A DNA stretch of 58,554 bases from an uncultured Candidatus Saccharibacteria bacterium (GCA_964585475.1 CAZPDF010000007.1:1-58554), one strand, 5' to 3'; numbered from the stretch's first letter, positions 4,434 through 58,554 are shown. Notes: a model not told the origin generated them from the letters alone. A program made the numbers and translations.

Positions 4434-4493
4434 ATTTAGGAGCACACTCGCTACCAGTTCGCAGAATTAAGAAAGCACTAAAGGGGATAAATA

Positions 4494-35700: not shown

Positions 35701-36388
35701 GGCGGAAACAATTTATCAGGAGCTTAGGAAGAAACTGAAATTGAAAGAAACGAGTATTCATCTTGTTGGGTGGCCAATTCTCTTGTGTGTCATTCCGAGG
35801 CGAAAGCCGAGGAATCTCACGAGATCCTTCGCCCCGTATAGCTCCCCGCGGGTGATTATACGGGGCTTCGCTCCGCTCAGGATGACGGCGGGGGAGAAGA
35901 AAATTTTGGGCAACATGGAGGAAGTTAGAAAGATTGTCGCGGACGCGTTGAGGTTGCGTGCGGCCGCCGAAATCAAGGTTCGTCAGCCGCTCGCTTCGCT
36001 ACAAATTCGAAATCCAAAATTCGAAATCCGAAACGAAAAGGAGCTGTTAGATCTGATCCGAGACGAAGTGAATGTTAAAAAAGTTGCGTTCGGAGTTGAG
36101 TTTAAGTTGGAGACGACCTTAACGCCGGAATTAAAAGAAGAGGGAGTTGCGCGCGAGATCATCCGTAATATTCAGGAGATGCGTCGTGGCGGCGGTTTTC
36201 ACCCGGCCGATTTGATTTTCATCCAAATCGCGGGAAGCGAGGCGACCGGGACGGTTATCGAGAGATGGCAGCAGTTTATTCAAAAAGAAACAAATTCGCG
36301 AAAAGTTATCGTTGGCGGGAAAAAAATTTTTAAGATCGAGCGCGAAATAATTATTGACGGGTTGCAACTTTGGATAGGAATTCGGTAG
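32750..36388 (+). CDS. ileS: Isoleucine--tRNA ligase carrying an inserted histidine-phosphatase domain and repeat insertions
   Basis: PPTANGLPHIGHA (HIGH), KMSKSKGN, WCPRCQT, and CDKC..CGRC zinc knuckles. 1212 aa. Confidence 0.9.
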   Translation: MQGKSAFNLPSLEEKILGFWEENKIFEKSLERTKKGKRFVFFEGPPTANGLPHIGHALSRAFKDIILRYKTMRGFYVPRKAGWDTHGLPVEIEVEKILGFKSKRDIEKYGIARFNQKAKESVWRYKDEWEKSTKRLGFWLDLEHPYITYDTAYIETLWWIIKEIWKKGLLYQDFKVIPWCPRCQTGLSSHEVGLGYKKIKEDSIYVKLKLKNKTNEYLLIWTTTPWTLPANVAVALNPQTEYTKYKIKGEYLWSARTPPYETPEKISVVEKASGRSLLGIKYEPLFRVPKECSLGGVPEFATIAGEFISLEEGTGMVHIAPAFGDEDMETAKRMWRGSYPILHTVNTDGTMKKGVIGEKKFVKDADKLIIEDLKRRGLLYAAEPYEHDYPFCWRCSTPLLYFAKTAWWIKMRDVKKKLIENNGRINWIPSHLKTGRFGEFLADIRDWAFSRERFWGTPLPVWRCDKCDHQEVIGGREELARRAGPARNRFFLMRHGEALSNVKNIVSYAPDGKYRETLRGLVQDERAAKKLKKIGIDFIYTSDVLRTKQTAEIVGGVLGLKPRIDTRLHELNAGDLEGRHPDEYHSYFSFESEKFTKRPPGGENLTEVRKRMLEVVEELEQKHSGKTILLISHEHPLWLLYAGSIGLTNEETLALRSGSRREEFIHFAEVMELPYVRLPRDENGEVDLHRPYADSFKIPCGRCDGLMKRVTEVIDAWFDSGSMPFAQAHRPFGDHLPFTSYQSQYPADYICEGVDQTRGWFYTLLAVATLLGKPSPYKNVISLGHVLDKSGQKMSKSKGNVVNPGEIIKKYGADTLRWYFYTINSPGEPKRFDEKDLMGKLRGFLMTFWNCFVLFDTYVDKIRNLPRTVPEALVRGSKFPGLARALPRAGEIRNSKNVLDRWVLAKLEILERDVTMKLDAYDITGAGRVIEEFVINDFSQWYLRRSRRRFQRPESKEIFAEAAETTAQVLYQLLRISAPFVPFLAETIYQELRKKLKLKETSIHLVGWPILLCVIPRRKPRNLTRSFAPYSSPRVIIRGFAPLRMTAGEKKILGNMEEVRKIVADALRLRAAAEIKVRQPLASLQIRNPKFEIRNEKELLDLIRDEVNVKKVAFGVEFKLETTLTPELKEEGVAREIIRNIQEMRRGGGFHPADLIFIQIAGSEATGTVIERWQQFIQKETNSRKVIVGGKKIFKIEREIIIDGLQLWIGIR
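35789..35886. repeat. GTCATTCCGA...TCAGGATGAC palindromic element inside ileS
   Basis: Translated as VIPRRKPRNLTRSFAPYSSPRVIIRGFAPLRMT, between SIHLVGWP and the MEEVRKIV helix. Confidence 0.75.
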
Positions 36389-36548: not shown

Positions 36549-36644
36549 GTCATCCTGAACAAAGTGAAGGATCTCTTGGAACAGCACGGATAGATTCTTC
36601 GCTGCGTTCAGAATGACATTCCTGGGGTTACTCGCTACCAGTTC
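36549..36644. repeat. GTCATCCTGA...TCAGAATGAC element plus ACTCGCTACCAGTTC tail (intergenic)
   Basis: Arms at 36549 and 36608. Tail at 36630-36644. Confidence 0.75.
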
Positions 36645-43807: not shown

Positions 43808-43980
43808 GAACTGGTAGCGAGTATATTCCTAAATGTCATTCTGAGCGCAGCGAAGAATCCCCTCATTTACGGCAAGAGCTCCTTCACGGAGTTTACCCTG
43901 AGATTCTTCACTTCGTTCAGAATGACTCACGAAGGGCTCAGGACGACAACGGGGAAAAGCGCTTTACTCGCCACCAGTTC
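43808..43980. repeat. Composite palindromic element with outer GAACTGGTAGCGAGT / ACTCGCCACCAGTTC repeats
   Basis: Inner arms GTCATTCTGA at 43835, TCAGAATGAC at 43917 and TCAGGACGAC at 43937. Lies between atpD and atpC. Confidence 0.75.
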
Positions 43981-44282: not shown

Positions 44283-47200
44283 ATGAGTTTCTCTAGCAAA
44301 AAACCGCAAAAGGATGGGGTGACGCGACGCTCGCTGTGGCTGTTGGGTTGTTTTCTCGCGGCCTTAGTTCTTACGGCAGGTCTTATAGGTGTATGGTCGG
44401 CTGAGGCCAGCAGTCTTGAGGATGCGCAAGATCTTACCGTCCTTTCGTTGTCATCCTCGCGGCCACTTTTTGCGGCTTTTCTTGACGACGCCGGAACATT
44501 TATTAGAAGTTTATTCCGCCGCCTGATCCCTTCGCGCGCCGTTACGGCAGATTTGGATGGTCAGGCCATTCGTCAAAAAAATAGCGGGCTTCTCGCGCCT
44601 TCCACTCCGCGCTCGACGGTTCGCATAAATGTTCCGAGCGAATTCAAAACCGAAGTCACCGTGCGCGGGCTTCTAAGAGGAACCGACATTGATTTGGGTT
44701 CGGGCACCATAATCGCCTCCAATGTTATTTATGGCGTCACGGCCGGAGACGGCATCGTTATTACCGGCGGCCAGCGGCCCGCGGTGTCTTCCGCTTTTTG
44801 GAGGAGGCGCGGGGACGTTATTGTTACCCGGGATCCCGGTTTGTCGCTTGAAGTTACCGGCGGAGTTACTATCGGCACCACCACCGGCTCCCGGCTTACT
44901 TTTGCGGGGCCGAGCGTCACCCGATACTTAGGAACCAATCTTACTCAATATAATAATTTTTCGACGACTACCATTTTAAATTCCGCGGCCAACGCCTGGA
45001 GCATTGCGACGTCCGCCACCGCCACTCCGATTTTGAGCATTGATACCCGTGGCGCCGGCTCGGTAAAGATTACCGGGTCCTTGGGTATTGGTACGACTTC
45101 TCTCGGTGCGGTATTGGCGGTTCAACAGCAAGATGCTTCCACCACCGCCTTCCGGCTCATTGGATTATCCGAGCGGCTGGGACGGCTCTTTGAAATTATT
45201 GATGCATCCAGCACTCCTCGTTTGGTTATTGACGGTTCGGGTCGGCTTGGCATTGGAACAACCTCGCCTTCAAGCCTGCTTGCCGTCAGCGGCAGCTCAA
45301 CTTTTACGGGTCCGCTTAGCGCGAGCGCGAGCGCCTATCTTGCCACGGCCGGCGGGAGCGTGGGCGTAGGAACCGTAAATCCCACGAGTCTTTTGAGCGT
45401 GCGGGGAACGCTGGATGTTTCGCTTGACGCGAAATTCGGCACAAGCCCTTTAATCCCCGTTATTAGTTGCGGCGGATCTGGAGTGCTTGAAACGGATGGA
45501 GAGGGAAGAATTACTTGCGGCTCGGACGCGGTTGGCGGAGGGGGCGTGGGCGGGTCCGGCGCAACCGGACAGGTTACTTTTTGGGCGAGTAGCGGTTCCC
45601 TGACCGGCAATTCCAATCTCATATTTGATTCAAGCACCGGACGACTCGGTATCGGCACTTCGTCTCCGGCTCAATCGCTCTCCGTAGGCGGCAATACATA
45701 TATAGTAGGGGGACTCGGCGTAGGGGTGGCGACAACTACTGCCGGGGCATTTGAGGTTTCCGGTCAGGCGTCCATCGGAGGCGCCCTGTCTCTTGCGGGC
45801 AACCTTGCGGTATCCGGTAGCGCGACCTCAACCTTTATATCGGGTCTCTCCGTCGGACTCTTAAACATTTCCTCCACCACCGCCAGTTCCACTTTCGCCA
45901 GCGGTATAAATCTTAATAACGGATGTTTTGCTATAAACGGCGGGTGTGTTGCCGGTGGCGCAACCGTCACTGGTGCCGGAGCTTCAGGGCAAGTTACTTT
46001 CTGGACCGGCGTCTCTTCCATTTCCGGGGACAACGCTTTTTTCTGGGATAGTTCCGCGGGGCGCCTCGGCCTAGGCACCACGTCTCCCAATTCGCTCTTG
46101 AATCTATATGGCACCTCGACTCTGGCCACTTTCCAGTCATTCATAAATTCCACGTCGGCTTTCAGAATCTTGAATGCGGCCTCCTCCTCGGTGTTTACCG
46201 TAGACACCTCCAATGGTTCCACCACCATTTCCGGAGTATTCAATGCCAACGGCGTAGGTACTTCCACTTTCGGAGGTGGACTTTCCGCGAATCTTTTGAA
46301 TGTCAGATCCACCTCGGCCAGTTCCACCTTTGGCAACGGCATTAGGTTATTGAACGGATGCTTTGAACTTACGGACGGCACCTGTGCGGTATCGAGCGCC
46401 GGAGCTGCGGCCTCATCCGGATGGACAGATGACGGAACCATAGTGCGTTTGAACCAAGCCGGAGACCAGGTATCCATAGGAAACTCGAGCCCTCTTTCCC
46501 CGGCCGTACTTTCTATTTACGCCACCACCTCCACTGCGGTTCCCTTGATCGCGCAGGCAGCGGCCAACCAGACCGCGGACCTGGTCCGCATCCAGAATTC
46601 CGGAGGAGCGAACTTGATCGTGGCCGACTACCAAGGCCGCGTATCCATTGGCACTTCTTCGGCGGTATCGCTATTCAACCTCTACGGCACCTCGACTCTG
46701 GCCACTTTCCAGTCATTCATAAATTCCACCTCGGCCTTCAGAATCTTGAATGCGGCCTCCTCCTCGGTGTTTACCGTAGACACCTCCAATGGTTCCACCA
46801 CCATTTCCGGAGTATTCAATGCCAACGGCGTAGGTACTTCCACTTTCGGAGGTGGACTTTCCGCGAATCTTTTGAATGTCAGATCCACCTCGGCCAGTTC
46901 CACCTTTGGAAATGGAATCATCCTTTCGAGTGGCTGCTTCAGAACCGTGAGCGGGGATTGCGCGGCCACGGGTTCGACCACCATTGATCAGGGTACTGCC
47001 AACCGTGTCACGTATTACTCGACCGCGTCCACTCTTGATTCAGCCAACTACCTTACCACCGACATTACCAACTCGCGCCTGGGAATCGGCACCACCACAC
47101 CGGGCACCACCTTAGGAGTTACCGGAGACGCGGTTATTACCGGAGTCCTTACCATGCGTCAATTCAACGCCACCTCGACCAGCGCAACTTCAACCATCCA

Positions 47201-50200
47201 GGGATTTCTTGACGTTTTGGGCACCGGATCAAACTCCACCTCCACTTACGCCTCTAACCTTTGGGTCAAAGGAGGACTTCAAATCGGAACCGGTTCTGTA
47301 CTCATTGGAAATAATTTCCTGAATTTTAACCAGTCAGCCTCCACTTCGCTTGCAGGCGCGGTCAATGCGTGGAACATCGGAGGAGCAAATCTTCTCTCGA
47401 TTGACGCTTTTAATAATCGTTTGGGTCTTGCTACCCAAACTCCCGCGTCTTTGCTATCTATCGCCGGAACCTCGACGATTGCCTTGGCCGGATCTTCGGG
47501 CCTTGGCAACATCGGCCTCTTGAACATCCAGCAAAACTCAATCGGAACCCCTGCCATGATTTACGGCCGAAGATTCACGGACGACTGGGTAACTACTGCG
47601 GCCACCAATACCGCAACCTCCACCTTTTTCTTAAGATTTGATGATACGAGAAATCAAGGGGTCTCTAACCTCATTACCGGCACCGCTACTACTTCCGGAT
47701 CACTTCTTTTCGGAGTTGATGTGAGGGGGGCGCTTACCATCAACCATGGATCTTCATCCGCGGTCGTGGTTGGTAAGCTTGGGATCGGCTCTCTCCCCCA
47801 ATCCATTGTTGTTTCCGGCAGATATGCCTATGTGGTGGATCAGGGAAGCGCTGATCTGAAAGTTATTGATGTTTCAAACCCGAGCGCTCCGGTTACAGTC
47901 GGTTCCCTTGGTATCGGCGATCTCCCCACATCCATCGCGGTCTCCGGCCGCTACGCCTACGTGGTGGATTATGGAAGCGATGACTTCAAAGTGATTGACG
48001 TTTCCAACCCATCCGCTCCGGTTAGAGTCGGTTCCCTTGACATTGGTACTACCCCCTGGTCCATCGCGGTCTCCGGCAGATATGCCTATGTGGTGGATCA
48101 GGTAAGCGTTGATTTGAAAGTGATTGACGTTTCCAACCCATCCGCTCCGGTTAGAGTCGGTTCCCTTGGTATAGGCGCTAACCCCACATCCATCGCGGTC
48201 TCCGGCCGCTACGCCTACGTGGTAGATTCGGGAAGCGATGACTTGAAAGTGATTGACGTTTCCAATCCGTCGGCTCCGGTAACTGTGGGAACCCTTGGTA
48301 TCGGCAATCTCCCCACATCCATCGCGGTCTCCGGCAGATATGCCTATGTGGTGGATCGGGGAAGCCAAGACCTTAGGGTGATTGACGTTTCCAACCCATC
48401 CGCTCCGGTTAGAGTCGGTTCCCTTGGTATAGGCGCTAACCCCACATCCATCGCGGTCTCCGGCCGCTACGCCTACGTGGTAGATTCGGGAAGCGATGAC
48501 TTGAAAGTGATTGACGTTTCCAATCCGTCGGCTCCGGTAACTGTGGGAACCCTTGGTATCGGCGATCTCCCCACATCCATCGCGGTCTCCGGCCGCTACG
48601 CCTACGTGTTAGATTCGGGAAGCGATGACTTGAAAGTGATTGACGTTTCCGGGGCAGAGGTGAATGCGTTAATGGCGCATTCCCTTGAGGCCGGATCTTT
48701 GCAGGTTCGGGATGATATTACCGCGCGAGGATTGAATCTTTCAGGAGGTCTTACTGTGGGCCCCAATGGCCTTCTCTCGCAGGGTACGGTCGGCATTTCT
48801 TTGCCTCTTGCCACAACCACTTTCATCAGCACCTCCACCTCCATTCTTACTCTCACTCACGCCACCGGAACATTTGCCGGAACCGGCCTTCTCATGGATT
48901 TTGCTACCTCCTCTGCCACCACCTCACCAACTAGAGGTGCAGGAACATTCACCGGAAACTTTCTTGAATTCAAGAATCGCGGCATCTCTAGATTCGTGGT
49001 GGACAAACTCGGGCGCCTCGCCATAGGCACGACAACTCCGGCCTGGTCCTTACAAGTCGCATCCAACACCCAGACCTATCTTACCCTGACGGCAAATGAT
49101 GCCAGCGCCAACCTCAAACACTGGACCCTTTCTTCCCAAGGAGGCAACTTCTACATATCCTCCTCCTCCGACGCCTACGCCACCAGTTCTACCGCTAGAC
49201 TCACCCTGTTAAGCTCCGGCCTCGTAGGAGTTGCCACCTCTTCCCCTTCCACCAACTTTTCCGTACTCGGAAATATCTATGCCACCGGAGGCCTTGGAGT
49301 AGGAAGATCCACCACCACCGCCGGAGTCCTGGATGTCGCAGGATCTGCCACCTCGACCTTTGTGGGAAACTTCGGGATTAACATGACTGGAGGGTGTTAT
49401 GCGCTTAACGGATCGTGCGTGGGAGGAGGCGGCGGAGTTTCGGGATCGGGAGCGACAAATAAGGTAACCTATTGGGATACTTCGAGCACCATTTCTTCGA
49501 ACGCCCTCTTTTCCTGGGATAACTCAAATGTTCGATTTGGTGTGGGCACGACCTCTCCCGGCGCACGTCTTTCCGTTGCCGGAGGGGGTTCCGCAAGCGG
49601 CATGTCAAACGCCATACTCTATAGCTTGGGCAACTTTATCTACGCTTCTTCCTCCACCTCCACTATCCCCAATCTTGCCCCATACGCTTTCTCTATTGCC
49701 ACCTCCACCACTGCCCAACCCATTTTCTCCATTGACACCCGTGGGGCCAGGGGCACCTCGTCTTTCCTGGGAGGATTTTCCATTGACGACGGAGCCGTGT
49801 TATATGACACCGCCACCGGCACTCTCTCGGTTGACGCTTTGAATACGGGACCGATGTCTTTTGACACGGATGCGGGAATGGTTTCCTGGATTGATATGCC
49901 CAGTTCAACCACGACGGCCGGTATTGCCATGAGTTATTCGGCTATGGTTGACTCAACGCAAGTTCTCACTATCTACGCCACCACCACTGCTTCCGGGAAC
50001 ATCACTTTCGGCTCGGTCGGCATCGGCACAACTACTCCTGGCGCAGCGCTGGACGTTCTTGGGGCGCTTTGCGTGGATGATGCAACTCCAGCCTGTGCGA
50101 ATGCGGCACGCGCCCCAGGCACTATTTACGCCGTGGCCACCACAATCACTGGCATTGACGTTGCCGAGCAGTATCCGACGACTGATACATCTCTTGAGGC

Positions 50201-51302
50201 GGGAGATCTGGTGAGTCTCGACGCCTCCAGTCCTGTTTTTGTCACAAAATCATCGCAAGCGATCACTTCGCCAATCATTGGTGTGGTTTCTACCAAGCCG
50301 GGCTTACTTCTCGGAGGATACGGCATAGAACTCTTTGAAGACGCAAGAAAGGTTCCTGTTGCGCTCTCCGGCCGGGTTCCGGTGAAGATTTCGGATGAGG
50401 GCGGCGCGGTAAAAATCGGAGATCGAATCGGGCTTTCCTCGCTTGCCGGAGTGGGGCTTAAGGCGACGACTTCGGGCGTTACCGTCGGTATCGCGCTTGA
50501 AAATTTTGGCCCGGCAAATTCAACCACAAGCGTTCTTCTTTCCTACGGCCGGACGGTAAAAACCGGAAAGGTTTTGGTTTTCGTGAATCTGGGGTATTCG
50601 AAGCTGGACGACGGAGTAACCAGTAACCAGTTACTAGTTACCAGTTCAACGACAAACGGCTGGTCGGTTGACCAGACCTCCGGCAAGGTCAGCGTCGGAT
50701 TTTACGGAGATATAGACATGCATGGGAATTCAATCGTGAATGTCGCAAAAATTGTTTCGCAAAACGGCAAATGGCGGATTGACGACGACGGGACCTTGAT
50801 TGCGACCCGCGTTGTTGCGGATGAGGTAACAACGCAGAAACTGACTGTCGGCTCGCCGACAAACCCGACCGGAATCACGCTTTTTGGCGAAGACGGCCTG
50901 CCTTACTGCGTTAAAGTCGGGACGGGAGGAGTGGTGAGGGCCGAGCAGGGAGAATGTGTGGCCTCCGTACCGTCTGTTATTCCAAGCGGTTCTGATGTCA
51001 TCCTGAGCGGTAGCGAAGGATCTCTAGATCCTTCGGCTGATGCCTCAGGACGACCCGCGGGGTCGGATTCTTCGGCTACTTCGTCGCCTCAGAATGACGT
51101 GGGAGGGGCGACCGCTTCCAGCACCACGACCGTAATCTCTGAAACTTCAACCACGACTCCGACGGTCGCCACGGAACCTACGCCTTCACCCGAACCTCCG
51201 CCGGCGCCAGCTCCGGAATCTTCTCCCGCGCCCGAACCCACGCCTACAGCCACTGCATCAAGCACTCCCATAACCAGTATCGAGCTGACCCCCGCGACTT
51301 AA
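44283..51302 (+). CDS. Giant (2339 aa) tail-fibre-like surface protein with LVIVD-type repeats
   Basis: N-terminal TM helix. About 10 copies of the G(R)LGIGTTSPxxxLxVxG motif. Eight or more GRYAYVVDxGSxDLKVIDVSNPSAP repeats (about 47800-48650). Pro/Thr/Ser-rich C-terminal tail. Confidence 0.8.
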   Translation: MSFSSKKPQKDGVTRRSLWLLGCFLAALVLTAGLIGVWSAEASSLEDAQDLTVLSLSSSRPLFAAFLDDAGTFIRSLFRRLIPSRAVTADLDGQAIRQKNSGLLAPSTPRSTVRINVPSEFKTEVTVRGLLRGTDIDLGSGTIIASNVIYGVTAGDGIVITGGQRPAVSSAFWRRRGDVIVTRDPGLSLEVTGGVTIGTTTGSRLTFAGPSVTRYLGTNLTQYNNFSTTTILNSAANAWSIATSATATPILSIDTRGAGSVKITGSLGIGTTSLGAVLAVQQQDASTTAFRLIGLSERLGRLFEIIDASSTPRLVIDGSGRLGIGTTSPSSLLAVSGSSTFTGPLSASASAYLATAGGSVGVGTVNPTSLLSVRGTLDVSLDAKFGTSPLIPVISCGGSGVLETDGEGRITCGSDAVGGGGVGGSGATGQVTFWASSGSLTGNSNLIFDSSTGRLGIGTSSPAQSLSVGGNTYIVGGLGVGVATTTAGAFEVSGQASIGGALSLAGNLAVSGSATSTFISGLSVGLLNISSTTASSTFASGINLNNGCFAINGGCVAGGATVTGAGASGQVTFWTGVSSISGDNAFFWDSSAGRLGLGTTSPNSLLNLYGTSTLATFQSFINSTSAFRILNAASSSVFTVDTSNGSTTISGVFNANGVGTSTFGGGLSANLLNVRSTSASSTFGNGIRLLNGCFELTDGTCAVSSAGAAASSGWTDDGTIVRLNQAGDQVSIGNSSPLSPAVLSIYATTSTAVPLIAQAAANQTADLVRIQNSGGANLIVADYQGRVSIGTSSAVSLFNLYGTSTLATFQSFINSTSAFRILNAASSSVFTVDTSNGSTTISGVFNANGVGTSTFGGGLSANLLNVRSTSASSTFGNGIILSSGCFRTVSGDCAATGSTTIDQGTANRVTYYSTASTLDSANYLTTDITNSRLGIGTTTPGTTLGVTGDAVITGVLTMRQFNATSTSATSTIQGFLDVLGTGSNSTSTYASNLWVKGGLQIGTGSVLIGNNFLNFNQSASTSLAGAVNAWNIGGANLLSIDAFNNRLGLATQTPASLLSIAGTSTIALAGSSGLGNIGLLNIQQNSIGTPAMIYGRRFTDDWVTTAATNTATSTFFLRFDDTRNQGVSNLITGTATTSGSLLFGVDVRGALTINHGSSSAVVVGKLGIGSLPQSIVVSGRYAYVVDQGSADLKVIDVSNPSAPVTVGSLGIGDLPTSIAVSGRYAYVVDYGSDDFKVIDVSNPSAPVRVGSLDIGTTPWSIAVSGRYAYVVDQVSVDLKVIDVSNPSAPVRVGSLGIGANPTSIAVSGRYAYVVDSGSDDLKVIDVSNPSAPVTVGTLGIGNLPTSIAVSGRYAYVVDRGSQDLRVIDVSNPSAPVRVGSLGIGANPTSIAVSGRYAYVVDSGSDDLKVIDVSNPSAPVTVGTLGIGDLPTSIAVSGRYAYVLDSGSDDLKVIDVSGAEVNALMAHSLEAGSLQVRDDITARGLNLSGGLTVGPNGLLSQGTVGISLPLATTTFISTSTSILTLTHATGTFAGTGLLMDFATSSATTSPTRGAGTFTGNFLEFKNRGISRFVVDKLGRLAIGTTTPAWSLQVASNTQTYLTLTANDASANLKHWTLSSQGGNFYISSSSDAYATSSTARLTLLSSGLVGVATSSPSTNFSVLGNIYATGGLGVGRSTTTAGVLDVAGSATSTFVGNFGINMTGGCYALNGSCVGGGGGVSGSGATNKVTYWDTSSTISSNALFSWDNSNVRFGVGTTSPGARLSVAGGGSASGMSNAILYSLGNFIYASSSTSTIPNLAPYAFSIATSTTAQPIFSIDTRGARGTSSFLGGFSIDDGAVLYDTATGTLSVDALNTGPMSFDTDAGMVSWIDMPSSTTTAGIAMSYSAMVDSTQVLTIYATTTASGNITFGSVGIGTTTPGAALDVLGALCVDDATPACANAARAPGTIYAVATTITGIDVAEQYPTTDTSLEAGDLVSLDASSPVFVTKSSQAITSPIIGVVSTKPGLLLGGYGIELFEDARKVPVALSGRVPVKISDEGGAVKIGDRIGLSSLAGVGLKATTSGVTVGIALENFGPANSTTSVLLSYGRTVKTGKVLVFVNLGYSKLDDGVTSNQLLVTSSTTNGWSVDQTSGKVSVGFYGDIDMHGNSIVNVAKIVSQNGKWRIDDDGTLIATRVVADEVTTQKLTVGSPTNPTGITLFGEDGLPYCVKVGTGGVVRAEQGECVASVPSVIPSGSDVILSGSEGSLDPSADASGRPAGSDSSATSSPQNDVGGATASSTTTVISETSTTTPTVATEPTPSPEPPPAPAPESSPAPEPTPTATASSTPITSIELTPAT
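50997..51098. repeat. GTCATCCTGA...TCAGAATGAC element inside the giant gene (102 nt, in frame)
   Basis: Arms at 50997, 51045 and 51089. Translated as VILSGSEGSLDPSADASGRPAGSDSSATSSPQND. Confidence 0.75.
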
Positions 51303-51348
51303 ACGTTGAAACGTTTAAACCGTTTAACAGTTTAATAAGTTTAAAAAT

Positions 51349-51873
51349 ATGGCAACAGTCCAAAGATTCGAGGATTTAATCGCCTGGCAAAAAGCGCGGG
51401 AACTTACCCGGGAAATATACAAAAGTTTAAGCGGTGAAACGTTTAAACGTTTAAACCTGCCGCCGGATTACGGTTTTATAGATCAAATCCGGCGAGCTTC
51501 GGTTTCCGTGATGTCTAATATCGCGGAAGGATTTGAACGAGGCACGCGCGCCGAGTTAATCAACTATTTATTTATCGCCAAGGGCTCCTGCGGAGAAGTG
51601 CGTGCGCAACTTTACGTTGCGTTGGACGCGGGATACTTAAACGTTGAAATGTTTAAACGTTTAATTGGTTTAAGCGAGGACTGCTCGGTTTTGATTTATC
51701 GTTTCATTCAGAGCATCAAGCAATCGGGGATCGCAGGACACCAATTCAAAAAAGAAAAATCCAAATCCCAACTTGAGCGCGAAGAATTCGACCAGTATCT
51801 TAAAAAGCATCTCGAAGAAGTCAAAACAAATCCTAGCGCCAAATTCGATATATCGCGTTTCGAAAGAAAATGA
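51349..51873 (+). CDS. Four-helix-bundle protein (23S rRNA intervening-sequence protein / Avd-like family)
   Basis: [58 protein letters not shown]. Confidence 0.75.
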
Positions 51874-54017
51874 ACTTTCAACTTGTCATTTTTAAGTATT
51901 TAAATATCGCGCTTATTGCGTTCGGATTTTTCTATGCGATGAGCGCCCACGCTGGCGCCATCTTCCACGCCCCGAATTACCTCGGCCTGACCTCGGGCCT
52001 GGTCGGCTACTGGTCTTTTGACGGCCCGGATGTGGCAGGAGTGCTTGCGTATGATCGCTCTTCAAGTTACGCCACCGGAACGCTCACGAACGGACCGAGG
52101 CGAGTTGTCGGCAGAATCGGACAGGCGCTGGAGTTTACGAAAGCCACCACGTCGGGCGTAAGTATGGGAGATGCGACTACGCTTAACAGTCTTACGAGTC
52201 TAACGTACTCTGCCTGGATCTACCCACGAAGTTACGGCAACATTGTTCCGGATGAGACGGGAGCGATATTAACCAAAGGGGATAATACCAACCGCGTCAA
52301 CAGAGCTTTTAAGTTAGACGATGCAACCGTGGTAGGAAGTCTGGAGTTCTTTATAAATTGTAGTGGTAACCCGCTCGATGCGTTTTCAGTAGCGAATAGC
52401 GTCACTCTCAATTCGTGGCATCATGTTTCCGTAACCTGGACCGGCGGTACAACTCGGGCAAGCGTGACATTTTATGTTGATGGAGTCCCGGTAGCGCGCG
52501 ATGGTACTGCCGGTACTGATTGTAGCCTCGGCATAGGAGACGATTCCCCGGGCCGTACCTCTCATATCGGAGGGAACACGACAATAAGTCCTACTTCCGG
52601 CGCTTTTAACGGCCTCATCGACGACGTCCGCATATATAACCGTGCCCTTTCCCCGGACGAAATCAAACGGCTCTACCGGATAGGCGGGACTCTGAAGCTC
52701 GGCAAGCCAGCTGGCGTCGGCCTCACCGACGGCCTGGTCGGCCATTGGACTTTTGATGAAGACGACATGGCCGGGGCCCTCGCTTATGACCGTTCTACCA
52801 GTTTCGCCACCGGAACGCTCACCAACGGCCCGGTGCGAGTGGCCGGCAGAATCGGGCAAGCGCTGAATTTTGACGGGGGGGATGATTATGTAGACATCGG
52901 GACGCCAGCAAGTTTGAGTCTCTCGGGACCCATGTCGGTGTGTGCGTGGATTAACGGGAAAAATTTAGGTGGCAGTAATGCGATATTCAGTAATGAGTTT
53001 GGAGGCGGCTCTCAATACACATTTGAAACATTTACCAGTGGTGCAAATTTACACTTCTATTGGATTGGCGCTGGTGGGCTTGAGGAATTTTTCACTGGTG
53101 ACATTCTTACCGACAATAGGTGGTATCACACCTGTGCCGTACGCATCAGCGATAGCAATGTCAAGATTTACCTTGATGCCGTTGAGCAGTCTGTCACCAA
53201 TTCTGGTGCCTCAGGTATTCCCGCCTCGGCAGCAGATACAGCGATTGGTAGAGAAGGGTTGCTAAATGCGGGCTACTTCCGCGGCTCTATCGACGACGTC
53301 CGCATCTACAACCGCGCTCTTTCCGCCGACGAAATCAAGCGGCTCTATAGGATCGGCGGGACTCTGAAACTCGGCAAGCCGTCCAATATCGGGCTAACTT
53401 CCGGCTTAGTAGGCCACTGGACTTTTGATGAAGATGATATGGCCGGAGTCCTGGCTTACGACAAGTCCACCAGTTTCGCCACCGGAACGCTCACAAACGG
53501 TCCTGTGCGTAAAATAGGCAGAATCGGGCAGGCGCTGAATTTTGACGGGGTGGATGATCGTGTCCCTGTGGTAACTGATTCTATAGATACTGGCACAATT
53601 ACGCTTTGCGGATGGATAAATCCGCGAGTTACCAGTTCTGCTACAGAGAAAGCACTTATGAGTAACGCAAGGTTCTTTTTCGGAGCCTCTAACGTAAATA
53701 GCCGTCTTAACCTTTATAGCAATAGTGCACTAGATCCGCCGCTACAATCCGCGGTGGATTCAATCGTCGCAAATGCGTGGCAACATATATGTGCCGTGCG
53801 GAATAGTGGGACGAATGGCCCGGCGTCGATCTACATAAACGGCGTACTCAATGCCTCCGGAAACTCTGGTACTCCCGTGTCAGGACTCGGTGCACTTAAC
53901 ATAGGCGATGATGGGTTTGGAGATTACTTTTTCAACGGCCTCATCGACGACGTTAGGGTGTATAATCGGGCTCTATCCCCTGATGAGGTACGTCGTCTGT
54001 ATAACATGGGTCGTTAA
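51870..54017 (+). CDS. Secreted protein with three LamG (concanavalin A-like) modules
   Basis: Signal peptide. Three copies of GLVGYW/HWTFD .. GQAL.F .. WH.. [25 protein letters not shown] overlap with the upstream gene. Confidence 0.75.
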
Positions 54018-54056
54018 TATCCTCATTATTCCCTTTAATCCCTTTTCTTCCCCTTT

Positions 54057-54728
54057 ATGGTCATAAAAGTATCAAAAAATCCATACGGATACAGGAATCT
54101 ATTGGTTTACGAGAAAGCCGAGGAATTGCAGAAAGCATGCTCCGAGCTGACCCATCAATTCCCCAAGACAAAGACGCTCGTCGCCTTGGGCGATCAGATG
54201 GATCGCTCGGCACGCTCGACTAAACAGAATATTGCCGAGGGATGGAAGCGGAATTTGACCCACGAGTATTATCAGTTTCTCGGCTACTCGATCGCCTCCA
54301 ATGCGGAGCTTGAGGAGGATTGTAACGATATTATTAAGGGAATGTACCCGGAGTTAATGGGTATAAAGGGGATAATGGGGGAAAGGGGAGAAGGGGTAAA
54401 CGAAAGAGGAGAAATGGGGATTGACGAGGTTGAACGGATCCCTTTTTATCCCATTAATCCCCATTTGCCTCCCATGGTTGGGCTGAAACTCCGGGCCAAG
54501 GAACTTAACTTTCTGCTTGACCGTCTGCAAAAGTCGCTCGCGCAAAAAATGGCAAGCGAAGGAACCCTGTCCGAGCGGGACAAACTCCAGAGAGCCCGCG
54601 AGAAGGAAAAAGAACGCTATAAACAGGATTTTGAACTGATGGACGCCATAAGAAAAAGCGATCCCATAGCTTTTGAAAAACATTATAAAAGCGAATACGA
54701 ACGTTTGAAGAAAATATTAAATACTTAA
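54057..54728 (+). CDS. Four-helix-bundle (Avd-like) protein with an internal word-hairpin insertion and C-terminal extension
   Basis: YRNLLVYEKAEELQKA..QMDRSARSTKQNIAEGWKR..FLGYSIASNAELEED. Confidence 0.65.
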   Translation: MVIKVSKNPYGYRNLLVYEKAEELQKACSELTHQFPKTKTLVALGDQMDRSARSTKQNIAEGWKRNLTHEYYQFLGYSIASNAELEEDCNDIIKGMYPELMGIKGIMGERGEGVNERGEMGIDEVERIPFYPINPHLPPMVGLKLRAKELNFLLDRLQKSLAQKMASEGTLSERDKLQRAREKEKERYKQDFELMDAIRKSDPIAFEKHYKSEYERLKKILNT

Positions 54729-54783
54729 ACGGACTATCGAAGTCGGACTTCACCAGAATTATAAAATAACTTATAAAAATAAT

Positions 54784-55470
54784 ATGAAGAAAGCACAAGT
54801 CACATCTATCGTCGTCGGGGTTCTGGTTATCGGAGGGGTTCTCTCATGGGTTTTTTTGGCGGCCGGTCTCGGAGCGTGGTTCCTTGACCGGGGAGGGGAG
54901 GGGGAATCTTCGAGCGGGTGGAATCTCGGCCCGGTTAATTTAAACATCTTCGGCTGGGGCAGATCCGGGGAAAATCAGCGCGAAATCAGCGTTGATATCA
55001 GCGCCAAATCAGCGGTTGTTGAGCCGCCGGCTACGCAGGGACCCGGGCGTACGGTCGGAAATCGATTCGTCTCCGAAAAATACGGCTTCTCTCTGGAGTT
55101 TCCCGAAGGTTTTAAATCCTCCACTTTTCCGGACGAGAAGGGGGAGCTGGTCGTATTTGAAAAAAGCCCAAAAGAAGGACTCCAGATATATATAGCCCCC
55201 TTTGATACCGAGGGCCCGCTCACGGCCCAATTTATCCGTTCCGAAGTGCCGGATATGCCCATGCGGAATATAAAAACCGCCAAGCTCGATTCGGTGCCGG
55301 CCGTGGTTTTTGAGAGTTCCAACGAATCCATCGGCGCGACTTTAGAAATTTGGCTCGCCCATCCCGAATCTCCGGTTCCCCACGGAAACTATCTTTACCA
55401 GATCTCGACCTACAAAGAATTTGCCGGGGAGATGACGGAGATATTACAAAGTTGGAAGTTTGTACAATAG
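54784..55470 (+). CDS. Membrane-anchored hypothetical protein
   Basis: N-terminal TM helix, no recognised motif. Confidence 0.5.
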   Translation: MKKAQVTSIVVGVLVIGGVLSWVFLAAGLGAWFLDRGGEGESSSGWNLGPVNLNIFGWGRSGENQREISVDISAKSAVVEPPATQGPGRTVGNRFVSEKYGFSLEFPEGFKSSTFPDEKGELVVFEKSPKEGLQIYIAPFDTEGPLTAQFIRSEVPDMPMRNIKTAKLDSVPAVVFESSNESIGATLEIWLAHPESPVPHGNYLYQISTYKEFAGEMTEILQSWKFVQ

Positions 55471-55495
55471 ATTCAAGATTTAAGATTCACGATTC

Positions 55496-55879
55496 ATGAA
55501 TAACGAAGCGGGAAAAATCCGAGAATTTACGGATTTAAAAGTGTGGCAAGAAGGCCACCGCCTTGTCATAGCAATTTATGCCGTAACTAAAAAGTTTCCC
55601 AAAGAAGAAATTTATTCACTGATAGACCAAATGCGAAGGGCGGTATCCTCAATAACCTCAAATATAGCAGAGGGTTTTGGCCGACATACCATGAAAGAAA
55701 AAATTCAATTCTATTATCATGCGCAAGGGTCCCTTACCGAACTGAAGAATCAGCTTTTTATCGCCCGCGATGTCGGATATCTTACGGCCGGCGACTTTGA
55801 GACGTTGATGAAAAGTGTTGAAGATACTCACCGATTACTGCAGGGTCTTATCACAAAATCAAAATCCTTTTTAAAATAA
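55496..55879 (+). CDS. Four-helix-bundle protein (Avd-like / 23S IVS protein family)
   Basis: FTDLKVWQEGHRLVIAIY..QMRRAVSSITSNIAEGFGR..YHAQGSLTELKNQLFIARD. Confidence 0.8.
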   Translation: MNNEAGKIREFTDLKVWQEGHRLVIAIYAVTKKFPKEEIYSLIDQMRRAVSSITSNIAEGFGRHTMKEKIQFYYHAQGSLTELKNQLFIARDVGYLTAGDFETLMKSVEDTHRLLQGLITKSKSFLK

Positions 55880-55922
55880 AGGGAATATATTCTTAAATCA
55901 TGAATCTTGAATCGTGTATCAA

Positions 55923-56067
55923 ATGAAACAGAACATCATTACAACCTCATTCCTGGTTTTCGCATTTATCTTCATTTTCAGCGGTGAAGCTAGCGCCGGT
56001 GCTCTCATCAACCGCGCGCCCACATCTCTGGGTTTGATTTCGGGTTTGGTCGGCTACTGGTCTTTTT
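55923..56067 (+). pseudogene. Decapitated LamG gene 5' cassette 1 (signal peptide to GLVGYWSF)
   Basis: [30 protein letters not shown], then interrupted by the hairpin element at 56068. Confidence 0.65.
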
Positions 56068-56167
56068 ACCCCGTTAGAGGCAAGACGCCAAGCCCCATTA
56101 CTGCAAGCAGTAACGGGGCGAGGGCGTCTGCCGATTCGCCTTTAGCGAATAGGGCCTCTAACGGGGT
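56068..56167. repeat. 100-nt hairpin element, CCCCGTTAGAGGC / GCCTCTAACGGGG termini
   Basis: Perfect 13-bp termini at 56069-56081 / 56154-56166, plus inner stems AGACGCC/GGCGTCT and ATTCGC/GCGAAT. Confidence 0.8.
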
Positions 56168-56219
56168 TGACGGCCCGCCCCGGTTAAAACAAGTTTTAAC
56201 GGGGTAAAGATATGGCTTG

Positions 56220-56322
56220 CCCCGTTAGAGCCACAATTGTCATGATTTATAATTATGTAATACAGAGTAAAAAAGACGGACGATGCCATGCTGGTTGCAC
56301 ACGCTTTCTGGCTCTAACGGGG
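56220..56322. mobile_element. Deletion-derivative element retaining only the first ~24 codons of a GIY-YIG gene
   Basis: CCCCGTTAGAGCC (56220-56232) and GGCTCTAACGGGG (56310-56322) are perfect inverted repeats. The interior starts ATG at 56242, MIYNYVIQSKKDGR. Confidence 0.6.
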
Positions 56323-56565
56323 CGAGGAAACAGAAAATCCGCCGCGTTATACGACGGACTTTCCGATGGACCCGGGGAGACTTGCACTCCCTTCGCTGGG
56401 TACCAACGCCAGCATGCTACTATATGCAACACAGGCCCGGATCCGTTGGCAATTATACAACAGAAAAGGCCCCTTTGAAAGGACCTTTTCTGGGTACCCA
56501 GCTTTGACCCGTGATGTATAGAGTCATACCGGCGTTGTAGCTCCATTGTAGCAGATGTAAAAACT

Positions 56566-56841
56566 ATGTCAAGCGTTTTACCCACAACCAAAAAACAACT
56601 GTATTTCTACTGCATTTCCATTGTATTTCTATTGAATTTCATGGTATTTCCTTATATTGCCAACGCCGGCGCTGTGATTAACAAGGCACCCGCTTCTCTC
56701 GGTCTGATTTCCGGCCTTGCCCCGTTAGAAGTAAGTCGCCCAAGGCGACTGCCGATGCGTTTATTCACCCCGTTAGGGACGATGTCTCTAACGGGGCGGG
56801 TCGGACTTCTAACGGGGCTGGTCGGCTACTGGCCCCGTTAG
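56566..56841 (+). pseudogene. Decapitated LamG 5' cassette 2, carrying an in-frame hairpin element
   Basis: ..AGAVINKAPASLGLISGL[34-aa insertion]LVGYW, then the left end of the GIY-YIG element. Confidence 0.6.
56719..56818. repeat. 100-nt hairpin element with a nested smaller hairpin
   Basis: CCCCGTTAGAAGT (56720-56732) / ACTTCTAACGGGG (56805-56817), perfect. Inner pair 56768-56796. Confidence 0.8.
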
Positions 56842-57232
56842 AGCCGCACTTATTATGTTTTACACATATTTATTACAAAGTCTCAAAGACAAACGGTGGT
56901 ACACCGGCTGTACGAATGATTTGCGCAAGCGTTTTAAGGAACACAACGAAAATAAAGTTCCGGCTACTAGAGGGCGGGGTCCTTTTGAGCTGATCTACTA
57001 TGAAGCTTGCATGAATGCGCAGGATGCTTATGCTCGCCCCGTTAGAAGTCCGGCAATGCCCAATGATTTTCAGTACCATGTTAAGCGAAGCGGCTTCGCC
57101 TTACACAATTTAGGTGGAAACACACTAACTTTGACTTCTAACGGGGCAAGAGAAAAATACTTGAAATCTGTTTCGGGAAAAAGATATCTCAAAAATCGTT
57201 TGAAACGTTTCCTAAATTTGTCTCTAACGGGG
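56833..57232 (+). mobile_element. Candidate autonomous element: inverted repeats bracketing a GIY-YIG nuclease gene (400 bp)
   Basis: CCCCGTTAGAGCC (56833-56845) versus GTCTCTAACGGGG (57220-57232), 12 of 13 complementary. The GIY-YIG ORF starts 10 nt inside the left end. Confidence 0.55.
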
Positions 57233-57466
57233 GCGGGAATTTTTCTTATTATATTTATCTTGACTATAGATACAGCTAGGGCGGGAGCCGTCATTAACAA
57301 AGCACCGATATCATTGGGGTTGATATCTGGACTAGTGGGCTACTGGTCTTTTTACCCCGTTAGAGGCAAGACGCCAAGCCCCATTACTGCAAGCAGTAAC
57401 GGGGCGAGGGCGTCTGCCGCGCCTTCGGCGCGAGCCTCTAACGGGGTTGACGGCCCGCCCCATTAG
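56855..57466 (+). CDS. Small GIY-YIG nuclease (COG2827-like) with a 38-codon hairpin insertion, reading through into LamG cassette 3
   Basis: MFYTYLLQSLKDKRWYTGCTNDLRKRFKEHN..PFELIYYEAC..AYA[insertion]REKYLKSVSGKRYLKNRL. No stop codon before the right repeat. Confidence 0.55.
   Translation: MFYTYLLQSLKDKRWYTGCTNDLRKRFKEHNENKVPATRGRGPFELIYYEACMNAQDAYARPVRSPAMPNDFQYHVKRSGFALHNLGGNTLTLTSNGAREKYLKSVSGKRYLKNRLKRFLNLSLTGAGIFLIIFILTIDTARAGAVINKAPISLGLISGLVGYWSFYPVRGKTPSPITASSNGARASAAPSARASNGVDGPPH
57036..57147. repeat. Hairpin element nested inside the GIY-YIG ORF
   Basis: CCCCGTTAGAAGTC (57037-57050) / GACTTCTAACGGGG (57133-57146), perfect 14 bp. Confidence 0.8.
57354..57447. repeat. Second copy of the 56068-56167 element in LamG cassette 3
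   Basis: 57338-57419 is identical by eye to 56052-56133. The apical hairpin differs but still pairs (CGCGCC/GGCGCG). Confidence 0.8.
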
Positions 57467-57559
57467 ATAAAAACACATAAGTTATGAAACAGGAGTATGT
57501 GATAAAATAAAAAAAATGTAATCCGTTAGCAAAATCTTATATGTTTTTATCTAACGGGG
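57458..57559. repeat. Hairpin element, CCCCATTAGATAAAAACA / TGTTTTTATCTAACGGGG
   Basis: Inserted at the same GACGGCCCG|CCCC junction as the 27-nt version at 56178-56204. Confidence 0.65.
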
Positions 57560-57800
57560 TAAAGATATGGCGGGAACCAAAAACCACGCATTTCTGCGTG
57601 GTTCCGGGGGTCTAAACCTAGTGCTTATACCCAGCTTTATCACCTATTATAAGTATATTCCTTATTTAAAATCCTGTCAATAGCATAGCACAATTTTGAA
57701 GCGGTGGAGGTGCGGGGATTTGCACCCCGTAGACCCTGGGTGATAAAGCCGGATCCGGCACTAAGCCACCCCCACCGCAGGTTCACAGTAACAAAAAGCC

Positions 57801-58554
57801 ATGAAAATTAAAAATTGCAAATTGAAAATTATACTGCTGGTATTTGCCTTTTGCATTTTAGGGCAAACTAATTTTGCCCAGGCCGGAGCCGTGATAAACA
57901 AGGCACCCGTTTCTCTCGGCCTGATTTCCGGCCTTGTCGGCTACTGGACTTTTGACGGCCCGGATGTGGCAGGAGTGCTTGCGTATGATCGCTCTTCAAG
58001 TTACGCCACCGGAACGCTCACGAACGGACCGAGGCGAGTTGTCGGCAGAATCGGACAGGCGCTGGAGTTTAGCGGTGCAAATGCTTGTGTAAATATTGGC
58101 CAGCAGTCTTCCCTTATGTCCCTAACGTCCCCAATTTCTTTTTCGTTATGGATTAGACCGAATAGCCTCTCCAGTAGTGGGAAGATACTTAATTTATTTC
58201 CAAACGACAGTAATTACAAGGAGAATGTTCTCATCACTAGTAATTTATTATATATGGGAGGACCAACCAATAAAGATGTGGTGAATCTTGCAGCGTCCGG
58301 CAACCCAATTTCGAGGGGAGAGTGGAACCATATAGCGTACACACGCGACGATTCTAGCAGGAGTGTATACATTAATGGGGTAAGATACGCAACCACCACC
58401 CCAGACTTTTTTGCAGGATCTAGCGGTTTCTATATTGGCGCTGGAGGTTCAACCTGTACCGACAGTCCATATGCTGGTTCCATCGACGACGTCCGCATAT
58501 ACAACCGCGCCCTCTCCGCCGATGAAATCAAACGGCTCTACAAAAGATCGGAAG
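57801..58554 (+). CDS. LamG-domain secreted protein (5' part; runs off the window)
   Basis: Absent from the ORF track because no stop is reached. MKIKNCKLKIILLVFAF..AGAVINKAPVSLGLISGLVGYWTFDG...[22 protein letters not shown]. Open to the window end. Confidence 0.75.
   Translation, partial: MKIKNCKLKIILLVFAFCILGQTNFAQAGAVINKAPVSLGLISGLVGYWTFDGPDVAGVLAYDRSSSYATGTLTNGPRRVVGRIGQALEFSGANACVNIGQQSSLMSLTSPISFSLWIRPNSLSSSGKILNLFPNDSNYKENVLITSNLLYMGGPTNKDVVNLAASGNPISRGEWNHIAYTRDDSSRSVYINGVRYATTTPDFFAGSSGFYIGAGGSTCTDSPYAGSIDDVRIYNRALSADEIKRLYKRSE

Follow-up and report, generated by a model that had tools for sequence, protein, structure and literature searches.

In a 58,554-nt stretch of DNA from an uncultured Candidatus Saccharibacteria bacterium (GCA_964585475.1 CAZPDF010000007.1:1-58554, the whole of which is referred to below as the window), three genes encode four-helix-bundle proteins of the family PF05635, and each of them is accompanied by a tandem array of short words and by the reverse complement of that array. 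We propose that these genes (genes 1, 2 and 3), together with a fourth that lies just beyond the window (gene 4), are probably cassettes of the intervening sequence (IVS) type outside ribosomal RNA (rRNA): embedded in the transcripts of their neighbours, bracketed by a stem and cut by RNase III. IVS elements with this open reading frame (ORF) and with heptamer arms are already known, inside 23S rRNA genes. In Patescibacteria, cyanobacteria and Bacteroidota, copies that stand free of rRNA retain the architecture of the rRNA IVS in full, which points to a general class of element that could reside in any transcript.

Four-helix-bundle genes with complementary word arrays

All three genes in the window match PF05635 ('23S rRNA-intervening sequence protein') in Pfam, at the ORF coordinates listed in Table 1. 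They score 106.1 bits (gene 1, E 1.4e-30), 62.0 bits (gene 2, E 7e-17, profile positions 1-74 only) and 127.2 bits (gene 3, E 3.8e-37), with a curated cut-off of 33.8. The NCBIfam model TIGR02436 ('four helix bundle protein', cut-off 24) matches the same genes with 94.9, 57.4 and 117.5 bits, respectively, and gene 4 with 42.5 bits. A six-frame search of the window revealed no PF05635 copy beyond genes 1-3. An earlier note on this DNA, made from the sequence alone, had described three such genes as interleaved with LamG and surface-protein genes, each tied to its own repeats. The Pfam matches and the neighbouring ORFs bear this out, and our repeat search recovered all the repeats listed for the three genes in their places.

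The words recur every 7 nt in gene 3, every 8-9 nt in gene 1, every 9 nt in gene 2 and every 10 nt in gene 4. In gene 3, the reverse-complement tract follows closely on the stop codon, while in genes 1, 2 and 4 it is found within the ORF, where helices 3 and 4 meet. Minimum-free-energy RNA folds of the cassettes of genes 1-3 all contain the long-range stems (z-scores -3.14, -3.61 and -3.22), and none of 100 shuffles folded as well. RNA folding, which the earlier note had proposed as a check, thus places the flanking words in stems above a shuffled background.

The gene 3 cassette and its relatives

The two arms of gene 3 are 38 nt each, are 79% complementary and close the minimum-free-energy fold. 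The upstream stop codon ends with the G of the first heptamer, and the AT of the ATG belongs to the final heptamer. Bracketing of this gene by inverted words had been noticed before and stands, although the words are tandem heptamers and not the 8-mers that had been described. The closest solved structure to the gene 3 protein is 2GSC (XCC0516), with an E-value of 1e-16.

To place gene 3 among its relatives, we fetched 80 metagenome loci with proteins that are 50-77% identical to it, and quantified the 72 non-redundant ones. Nearly every locus has a tandem word tract at the ATG and the reverse complement of that tract past the stop codon, with words that are specific to the locus, such as gatttaggatttacgatttaggatttaagaATG ... 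TAAttcgtaaatcctgaatcgtaaatc (L076), agtataaagtattatgtattgagtataaagtATG ... TAAtacttgatactgtatacttaatact (L108) and gggtaagggtatggggttggggttttgggATG ... cccaaaaccccaaccccataccc, also GGGTATGGGGTTGGGG / CCCCAACCCCATACCC (L132). Complementarity was expressed as a simple pairing score, and flanks from the same locus were compared with mismatched flanks and with the flanks of control genes. The median score was 30 for a locus's own flanks versus 19 for flanks from mismatched loci (Mann-Whitney p 1e-18) and 17 for 194 other genes in the same loci (p 3e-17). A 7-nt period was found in 56/72 upstream tracts and in 58/72 downstream tracts. A helix was found in 59/72 loci (median 22 aligned columns); its 5' side stops 2 nt short of the ATG, and its 3' side sets in 6 nt past the stop codon. 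The arms are skewed in composition, always with reference to the ORF strand: the 5' arm is poor in C (7%) and the 3' arm in G (9%).

The words of these loci form a continuum of G-plus-A/T-rich heptamers with no discrete classes. The 3' word nevertheless follows the 5' word of its own locus, which it matches at six or seven of seven positions in 38% of loci versus 10% for other loci, and where a contig has a second cassette, that cassette is bracketed by arms of its own, built from other words. When the arms were aligned in a fixed register, the registers slipped, and their offsets from the start and stop codons peaked mainly at -7 and 0. This arm-to-arm co-variation across the 72 loci confirms for other loci the stem bracketing that was first seen in the window. 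ORFs of about 120-140 codons were recovered in nearly all of the 79 gene-3-type loci listed. As the relatives of gene 3 are so widely kept as ORFs, the four-helix-bundle protein of this type is probably functional.

The census also refutes a chance origin of the arrays as low-complexity or slippage repeats without constraint. Although simple tandem repeats arise easily, and mononucleotide shuffles of the C-rich leader of gene 2 still pair moderately with the G-rich array of that gene, such an origin is virtually untenable in view of the fold z-scores of the three cassettes, the two pairing tests given above, and an arm position that, in about 80% of loci and across phyla, is fixed at the ATG and the stop codon and goes with a 7-nt period.

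The same architecture inside 23S rRNA and on plasmids

In the 23S rRNA IVS of Coxiella burnetii, inverted repeats at the ends make up a 28-bp stem, and RNase III cleavage has been mapped within this stem (PMC4990558). Two or three GACAGAT heptamers and a GACAGAA stand directly before the start of its S23p ORF, in a number that varies between strains (PMC4990558). We found a further example in a plasmid search with gene 3, which matched an unannotated stretch of Azospirillum lipoferum AZO_p2 (L151). This stretch is a 23S rRNA gene (Rfam, 500.8 bits), and its IVS contains a PF05635 ORF between GAGGACG GATGACA GAGGACG GAGGACA and the reverse complement of this array.

Eleven further plasmid copies were obtained from cyanobacteria and Bacteroidota (Nostoc, Calothrix, Geminocystis, Picosynechococcus, Stanieria, Leptolyngbya, Pseudanabaena and Riemerella). 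Inverted tandem arrays are present in nine or ten of the eleven, and one copy (L140) has an array on one side only. Two of these cassettes lie within CRISPR-Cas operons, with the four-helix-bundle gene between cas6 and cas4 (L139, Pseudanabaena pPg_01) or between cas10/cmr2 and cmr3 (L147, a plasmid of Picosynechococcus PCC 7003).

No rRNA was found by Rfam in the window, where the only matches were one transfer-messenger RNA and one tRNA, nor beside 19 related loci. The cassettes are flanked by protein-coding genes. As the same grammar is seen in the Azospirillum and Coxiella IVSs and in the plasmid copies, the idea of an IVS-like cassette is correct and general. The earlier suggestion of stem-bracketed, IVS-like cassettes that live outside rRNA is thus strongly supported by the census of gene 3 relatives, the Azospirillum rRNA gene and the published Coxiella element (PMC4990558), together with the absence of rRNA nearby.

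Word arrays inside coding sequence

The word tract of gene 1 is found in three places (51297-51343, 51417-51463 and 51635-51681). As its word is near-palindromic, the copies are direct and inverted simultaneously. The first tract overlaps the stop codon of the giant gene upstream, ends 5 nt before the ATG and forms part of the long-range stem. Its partner inside the ORF is complementary to it over 22 nt (86%), and this pairing is present in the fold. The in-frame copy that encodes GETFKRLN has no counterpart in the gene 1 orthologue of a related contig, L143, where BLASTP leaves an 8-residue gap.

In gene 2, the word of the leader (54019-54051) recurs directly at 54438-54461 in our repeat search, and the leader pairs with 54349-54409 in the predicted fold. 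The G-rich array inside the gene is complementary both to the leader and to the C-rich array behind it, and the arms of the local hairpin lie at 54412-54437 and 54441-54466. In an AlphaFold model of the protein (predicted local distance difference test, pLDDT, of 88.7), helices span residues 16-33, 39-64, 68-93 and 139-168, and the array-encoded residues are predicted as a low-confidence loop (110-118) between helices 3 and 4.

Contig L001 carries the same sequence and extends 4.7 kb past the window, where it contains the next LamG gene, the PF05635 gene 4 and then recO. The leader of gene 4 consists of three copies of ATCCTTTA with a 10-nt period. Inside the gene are a reverse-complement array of 32 nt (84% complementary) and a second copy in the sense direction. 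Between helices 3 and 4, genes 2 and 4 both carry an insert of some 40 residues.

A protein search with gene 2 yielded 414 relatives with E < 1e-5, the best of which are about 60% identical; those that are named all belong to Patescibacteria (candidate phyla radiation, CPR). The alignment of this family shows a conserved YPELMGIKGVMGE motif, a hypervariable G-x-y repeat that in some members is followed by a P/S/T-rich stretch, and a conserved DIEKIPFYPLDPxLPP motif, of which the PFYPLDPxLPP part falls at the C-rich array. We fetched 54 loci, 44 of which were usable for array counts. An internal G-rich array of 34-205 nt is present in 42/44 loci and has a 9-nt period in 34. Upstream of the gene, a C-rich leader is found in 17/44 loci and a G-rich tract in 28/44, with at least one of the two in 35/44. 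Several loci have non-coding tracts of up to about 270 nt of degenerate AAAGGGNNN words, which often continue into C-words and so give a long hairpin ahead of the ATG. These non-coding tracts of G- and C-words upstream of gene 2 relatives indicate that the arrays are nucleotide-level elements, and their 9-nt period means that they can remain in frame within the ORF. The subfamily shows how arrays that originate at the nucleotide level can turn into conserved protein loops.

Genomic context and transcription

The upstream neighbours of 111 cassettes belong to 89 Pfam families, mostly housekeeping ones. The commonest are glycosyl hydrolase family 1, with 7 cases that agree with conserved synteny, and LamG, with 4; others include thymidylate synthase, tRNA synthetases, GatB, FtsZ, DnaB and ATP synthase. 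By the LamG profile, LamG adjoins 4/79 gene-3-type loci and about 5/53 gene-2-type loci. These few LamG neighbours and the 89 neighbour families show that the family as such is not functionally tied to LamG or to surface proteins. The functional link to variable surface-protein genes that the earlier note had considered thus finds no support as a general rule, and the LamG neighbourhood in the window is a local circumstance outside the system. A modest enrichment of LamG, or a local co-duplication of LamG with the gene-2-type cassette, is possible.

The cassettes occupy short gaps of a co-directional gene string in a chromosome of the Patescibacteria. Among related loci, cassettes are co-directional with their neighbours in 168/193 adjacent pairs (87%) versus 77% (205/267) for the remaining pairs of these loci (p 0.006). 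From the upstream stop codon to the ATG of the cassette, the gap has a median of 44.5 nt, about one arm length. Promoter-like and terminator-like sites in the region are no more frequent than in shuffles. The co-direction, the short gap and the absence of an excess of promoters or terminators fit read-through transcription.

Avd, which serves diversity-generating retroelements (DGRs) as an accessory protein, is a homologue of PF05635, and the earlier note had called these genes Avd-like. This label holds at the level of the superfamily and fails for Avd proper. Gene 3 has a weak match to bAvd, while the Avd-specific models stay below their cut-offs (PF22296 with 31.9 bits versus 40, NF033474 with 31.5 versus 80). 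In a DGR, the genes would serve a retroelement that diversifies the neighbouring LamG or surface proteins. The LamG genes are indeed paralogous and variable, and PF05635 is the most frequent Pfam family in a data set of DGR neighbourhoods (PMC10053308). However, a search for a reverse transcriptase or a DGR template repeat, as suggested in the earlier note, found nothing. Neither L001 nor any of the window's 20 largest ORFs has a reverse transcriptase domain (the scan did not cover every small or unannotated ORF), and the window contains no repeat pair with adenine-specific mismatches. The 20 largest ORFs are ordinary chromosomal genes, such as ArgRS, IleRS, ATP synthase, P-type ATPase and PolX. 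As the relatives also adjoin 89 different gene families, we reject this explanation, which is largely refuted and highly improbable, and return to cassettes of the IVS type.

Turnover at the orthologous site

The gene for the 228-aa protein between genes 2 and 3 serves as an anchor for the comparison of orthologous sites. In three related contigs (L142, L143 and L144), its homologue lies directly behind the tail of the giant gene, and the triple-LamG gene and gene 2 are absent. L143 has an intact orthologue of gene 1 that is 58% identical. In L142, gene 1 has collapsed to MATVKQ, one word tract (AAGGTTT x3) and the C-terminal tail, and in L144 there is only a word tract without an ORF. The words at the gene 1 site are different in each lineage. 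The leader of gene 1 and its internal partner changed in concert, from AACGTT in the window to AATATT in L143 or the reverse, and this altered the encoded residues, so that L143 reads YLNIETFKYL. The window lineage gained a 24-nt word copy inside the ORF of gene 1. Behind the 228-aa gene, L143 has two gene 3 heptamers and ATGAAT, and no gene 3.

The word differences, the copy in the ORF and the remnants indicate that arrays turn over fast, spread into coding sequence and mark deletion sites. They point to turnover by slippage or template switching at the DNA level, and the presence/absence pattern with decayed remnants at orthologous sites hints indirectly that the cassettes may be mobile. Among 130 loci, we saw no identical cassette copies at different sites. 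All three contigs end 27-196 nt past the homologue of the 228-aa gene, where the gene 3 cassette starts in the window; word arrays may break short-read assemblies. The window sequence is present in only four sequencing runs, all from a groundwater metagenome, and in the contigs of these runs we saw no cassette-length variants on 50800-58554, where the matches are mostly cross-matches between LamG paralogues.

Several of these observations would also fit a DNA-level element, in which the word arrays are the terminal inverted repeats or recombination substrates of a non-autonomous cassette and act as cruciforms, template-switch substrates or transposition ends, with the RNA stem as a by-product. 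Such an element is consistent with the word copy inserted in gene 1, with the deletion of the gene 1 core in L142 that left one tract, with the ORF-less tract of L144 and the gene 3 arm remnant of L143, with the long hairpins of G- and C-words that stand alone upstream of gene 2 relatives, and with the three assemblies that break right behind the 228-aa gene. The mismatches in the arms of gene 3 relatives, with 20 G:U and 21 A:C, fit complementarity that is kept on double-stranded DNA. However, no transposase adjoins the cassettes and no recombinase accompanies them, and no target-site duplication was noticed, though no systematic search was made. The strand asymmetry of the arms is fixed with respect to the ORF, and the arms abut its start and stop codons and enclose no space for a promoter or terminator. 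The cassettes are co-directional with their neighbours above the baseline, and the homologous stem in rRNA is a proven RNase III substrate (PMC4990558). Weighing both sides, we consider a purely DNA-level element unlikely.

Proposed mechanism

For IVS-type cassettes embedded in transcripts, we propose the following mechanism. The cassette would be transcribed by read-through from its neighbours, inside a host transcript. The two tracts would pair as a duplex of about 20-40 bp, which closes off the ORF or its 5' part and buries the start codon. By analogy with the stems of rRNA IVSs, RNase III would cut this duplex, and the cut would detach the cassette RNA from the host transcript and set the output of the four-helix-bundle protein. 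The tracts would change quickly, probably via replication slippage and template switching between the arms, and in this proposal such exchange keeps the arms of one cassette matched as their words diverge. The cassettes of one genome would acquire different 'private' words and so avoid cross-pairing and recombination with each other. By comparison with Avd and its RNA, a pentameric protein that binds its own stem is a possibility.

If binding were the main role of the arrays, the periodic words would be recognized, in RNA or DNA, by the pentamer of their own four-helix-bundle protein, for autoregulation or in a ribonucleoprotein (RNP), and the words would be specific to the paralogue. For 2GSC, the nearest relative with a solved structure, a homopentameric toroid has been described (PMC4990558), and the homologous Avd pentamer grips an RNA stem-loop (bioRxiv 10.1101/2023.10.23.563531). 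The four paralogues of this genome have different words, and A:A is the commonest arm mismatch in gene 3 relatives (50/159). This explanation is decidedly improbable, as the words drift fast between orthologues with 58% identical proteins, the gene 2 subfamily has one common vocabulary for proteins that are about 60% identical, with no demonstrated match of protein to word, and word periods from 7 to 10 nt misfit a single binding geometry.

Several points weigh against cassettes that are cut from their transcripts by RNase III. In genes 1, 2 and 4, the ORF itself contains the 3' partner, and cleavage there would destroy the mRNA instead of releasing it. In the gene 2 subfamily, the leader pairs no better with its own gene than with those of other loci (p 0.14), and its words are one common GGG/CCC vocabulary. 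The flanking arrays of L139, (AAAAGCT)n and (AAAAGCC)n, are direct and not inverted. The arm mismatches show no excess of G:U over A:C, so that the pattern expected from selection on sense RNA alone is absent. The sequencing runs that contain the window sequence are all DNA, with no RNA runs among them. Once excised, the IVS RNA of Coxiella is labile, and its protein is seemingly not made (PMC4990558), which means that processing need not serve expression.

A wider version of the IVS-type reading is conceivable, if quite unlikely. PF05635 genes would then be autonomous, selfish cassettes embedded in transcripts, in which the pentamer and its own word stem form an RNP that is released by RNase III from rRNA or mRNA and is perhaps copied by reverse transcriptases acting in trans. 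The Avd-RNA complex of DGRs would be a domesticated offshoot, and such elements would have left their footprints in cyanobacteria as tandem heptamer arrays of the short tandemly repeated repetitive (STRR) type.

The PF05635/TIGR02436 family comprises 21,335 clusters at 50% identity (E up to 1e-3), and this large family may consist of transcript-embedded cassettes. To our knowledge, its proteins have no assigned function except for the DGR protein Avd, and PF05635 genes outside rRNA are known solely as annotations. Our literature search left subscription journals mostly uncovered, so that an earlier mention is possible; within this coverage, the one related description was that of the Coxiella IVS (PMC4990558), and we found no account of free-standing PF05635 copies that keep the IVS architecture across phyla, of the co-variation of arms from locus to locus, or of a subfamily that absorbs 9-nt arrays into its coding sequence. 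IVS-type cassettes predict RNase III ends within the arms and binding of the protein to the arms, and they offer a possible origin for tandem heptamer arrays. For annotators, it is of use that cassettes split operons, CRISPR-Cas operons included.

Other features of the window

The features of the four cassettes and their neighbours are listed in Table 1.

Table 1. Cassette features and neighbouring genes (positions in the window unless a contig is given)
Feature	Position	Strand	Remarks
Giant surface protein, 2339 aa	44283-51302	+	upstream neighbour of gene 1
Gene 1 5' word tract, period 8-9 nt	51297-51343	+	AACGTTGA AACGTTTA AACCGTTTA ACAGTTTA ATAAGTTTA
Gene 1, four-helix bundle, 174 aa	51349-51873	+	C-terminal tail; stop overlaps LamG start
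In-frame word-tract copy within gene 1	51433-51458	+	encodes GETFKRLN; 22+2-column gap in DNA alignment with L143
Gene 1 internal partner of leader tract	51635-51681	+	start of helix 4; encodes NVEMFKRLI
Triple-LamG (Laminin_G_3) protein, signal peptide	51870-54017	+	E 1.3e-81, 3 stretches; neighbour, not part of a cassette
Gene 2 leader, C-rich word tract, 9-nt period	54018-54056	+	fills entire gap from LamG stop to ATG
Gene 2, four-helix bundle, 223 aa	54057-54728	+	array-encoded loop between helices 3 and 4; Patescibacteria-wide subfamily
Gene 2 internal G-rich array, 9-nt period	54349-54437	+	in-frame G-x-y repeats GIKGIMGERGEGVNERGEMG
Gene 2 internal C-rich array	54438-54472	+	encodes IPFYPINPHLPP; 3' arm of local hairpin; direct copy of leader word
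Membrane-anchored protein, 228 aa	54784-55470	+	no known domain; neighbour
Gene 3 5' arm	55465-55502	+	GATTCAA GATTTAA GATTCAC GATTCAT at 55470-55497
Gene 3, canonical four-helix bundle, 127 aa	55496-55879	+	
Gene 3 3' arm	55888-55925	+	TTAAATC ATGAATC TTGAATC GTG, reverse complement of 5' heptamers; enters start of next ORF
Run of LamG 5' fragments	after 55914		downstream of gene 3
Gene 4 cassette	L001 12909-13688		layout of gene 2, other word

The region downstream of gene 3 (55914-57470) is a graveyard of LamG 5' ends (signal peptide and GLVGYW), each of which is broken directly after GLVGYW. Between inverted words of the CCCCGTTAGAG type, this region contains an ORF for a GIY-YIG nuclease (56855-57466) and a second, truncated copy that starts at about 56236. 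This looks like a homing-type or palindrome-bracketed GIY-YIG cassette that would target the conserved LamG site. In the same region (56060-57560) is a second, unrelated repeat family bounded by GCCCCGTTAGAG ... CTCTAACGGGGC, with 7 forward and 8 reverse words in 1.5 kb. Copies are found, for example, at 56068-56166, 57033-57150 and 57354-57446, with a weaker pair at 39288/39405, and similar words also occur in a few of the other loci that we fetched (L058, L065, L080 and L144). The copy at 56068-56166 folds as a very stable Y shape (-72.8 kcal/mol, z -7.6) and interrupts a LamG 5' end in frame, as an insert of 102 nt between GLVGYWSF and DGP. A GIY-YIG ORF contains another copy, also in frame.

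On the minus strand of this repeat-rich region, at about 57565-57680 and 56455-56572, are two strong sigma-70-like promoters (TTGACA-17-TATACT, and TTGACA-16-TACAAT with an upstream TG). Within about 60-90 nt past each of them, a terminator-like hairpin can be read by eye, e.g. CCACGCAGAAATGCGTGG followed by TTTTT. These promoter-hairpin units are candidate small RNAs; they have no Rfam match.

The LamG 5' ends at 51981-52137 and 57915-58071, which are 6 kb apart, are 97% identical over 157 nt, and the remainder of the genes is about 80% identical or less. This difference suggests recent gene conversion between the two 5' ends. The mismatches between them are not adenine-specific. The giant gene contains about seven tandem units of about 129 nt at 47778-48650 (43 aa, GRYAYVVD..DLKVIDVSNPSAPV..GSLGIG; 82-89% identity), and a 242-nt repeat with 97% identity is present at 46092-46333 and 46668-46909.

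Elsewhere in the window, the isoleucyl-tRNA synthetase (32750-36388, 1212 aa) has a complete His_Phos_1 histidine-phosphatase domain in the middle of the protein (residues 491-652), before the anticodon-binding domain. A dispersed intergenic repeat of about 52 nt occurs at 4408-4460, 36592-36644 and 43808-43859 (minus strand), with 85-94% identity and one of the three inverted, and a further pair lies at 4281-4318 and 43910-43947.

Comparison with known systems

The cassettes most resemble the 23S rRNA IVSs of Coxiella burnetii, Leptospira and Azospirillum (L151). Their ORF belongs to the same family, PF05635 or 'S23p', and lies in sense orientation inside a host transcript, a predicted one in the case of the cassettes. 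Both have terminal inverted arms of tandem heptamers that begin with G-A, with a 5' array that reaches the ATG and varies in copy number. The IVS element is about 430-460 nt, and gene 3 measures 461 nt from arm to arm. Unlike the IVSs, the cassettes lie between protein-coding genes and not in a helix of 23S rRNA, three of the four (genes 1, 2 and 4) have their 3' partner inside the ORF, and their word periods include 8-10 nt besides 7 nt. Cutting by RNase III is proven for rRNA IVSs, whereas for the cassettes described here it is a prediction.

Avd of the Bordetella phage BPP-1 (bAvd) has a homologous four-helix-bundle fold and belongs to the same superfamily. In the DGR of this phage, the Avd pentamer clasps an RNA stem-loop of 11 bp and holds flipped-out bases between its protomers, and the avd coding RNA pairs at its 3' end with RNA further downstream (bioRxiv 10.1101/2023.10.23.563531). 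In contrast, the sequence scanned here contains no reverse transcriptase, template repeat or variable repeat.

The STRR heptamers of heterocystous cyanobacteria are dispersed repeats that were described without a linked gene or a stem function. They resemble the arms described here as tandem heptanucleotide arrays in intergenic DNA, and the PF05635 genes that we examined on cyanobacterial plasmids are flanked by such arrays in inverted orientation. We found no paper that links STRRs to PF05635. The organism studied here differs in being a Patescibacterium.

Finally, genes 2 and 4 are similar to genes with Rickettsia palindromic elements, as they carry an in-frame, hairpin-forming repeat that is tolerated as a surface loop. 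Unlike those elements, the insert in genes 2 and 4 is a tandem 9-10-nt array of variable length that is tied to a matching leader, and it is kept across a whole protein subfamily instead of being a dispersed copy of one element.

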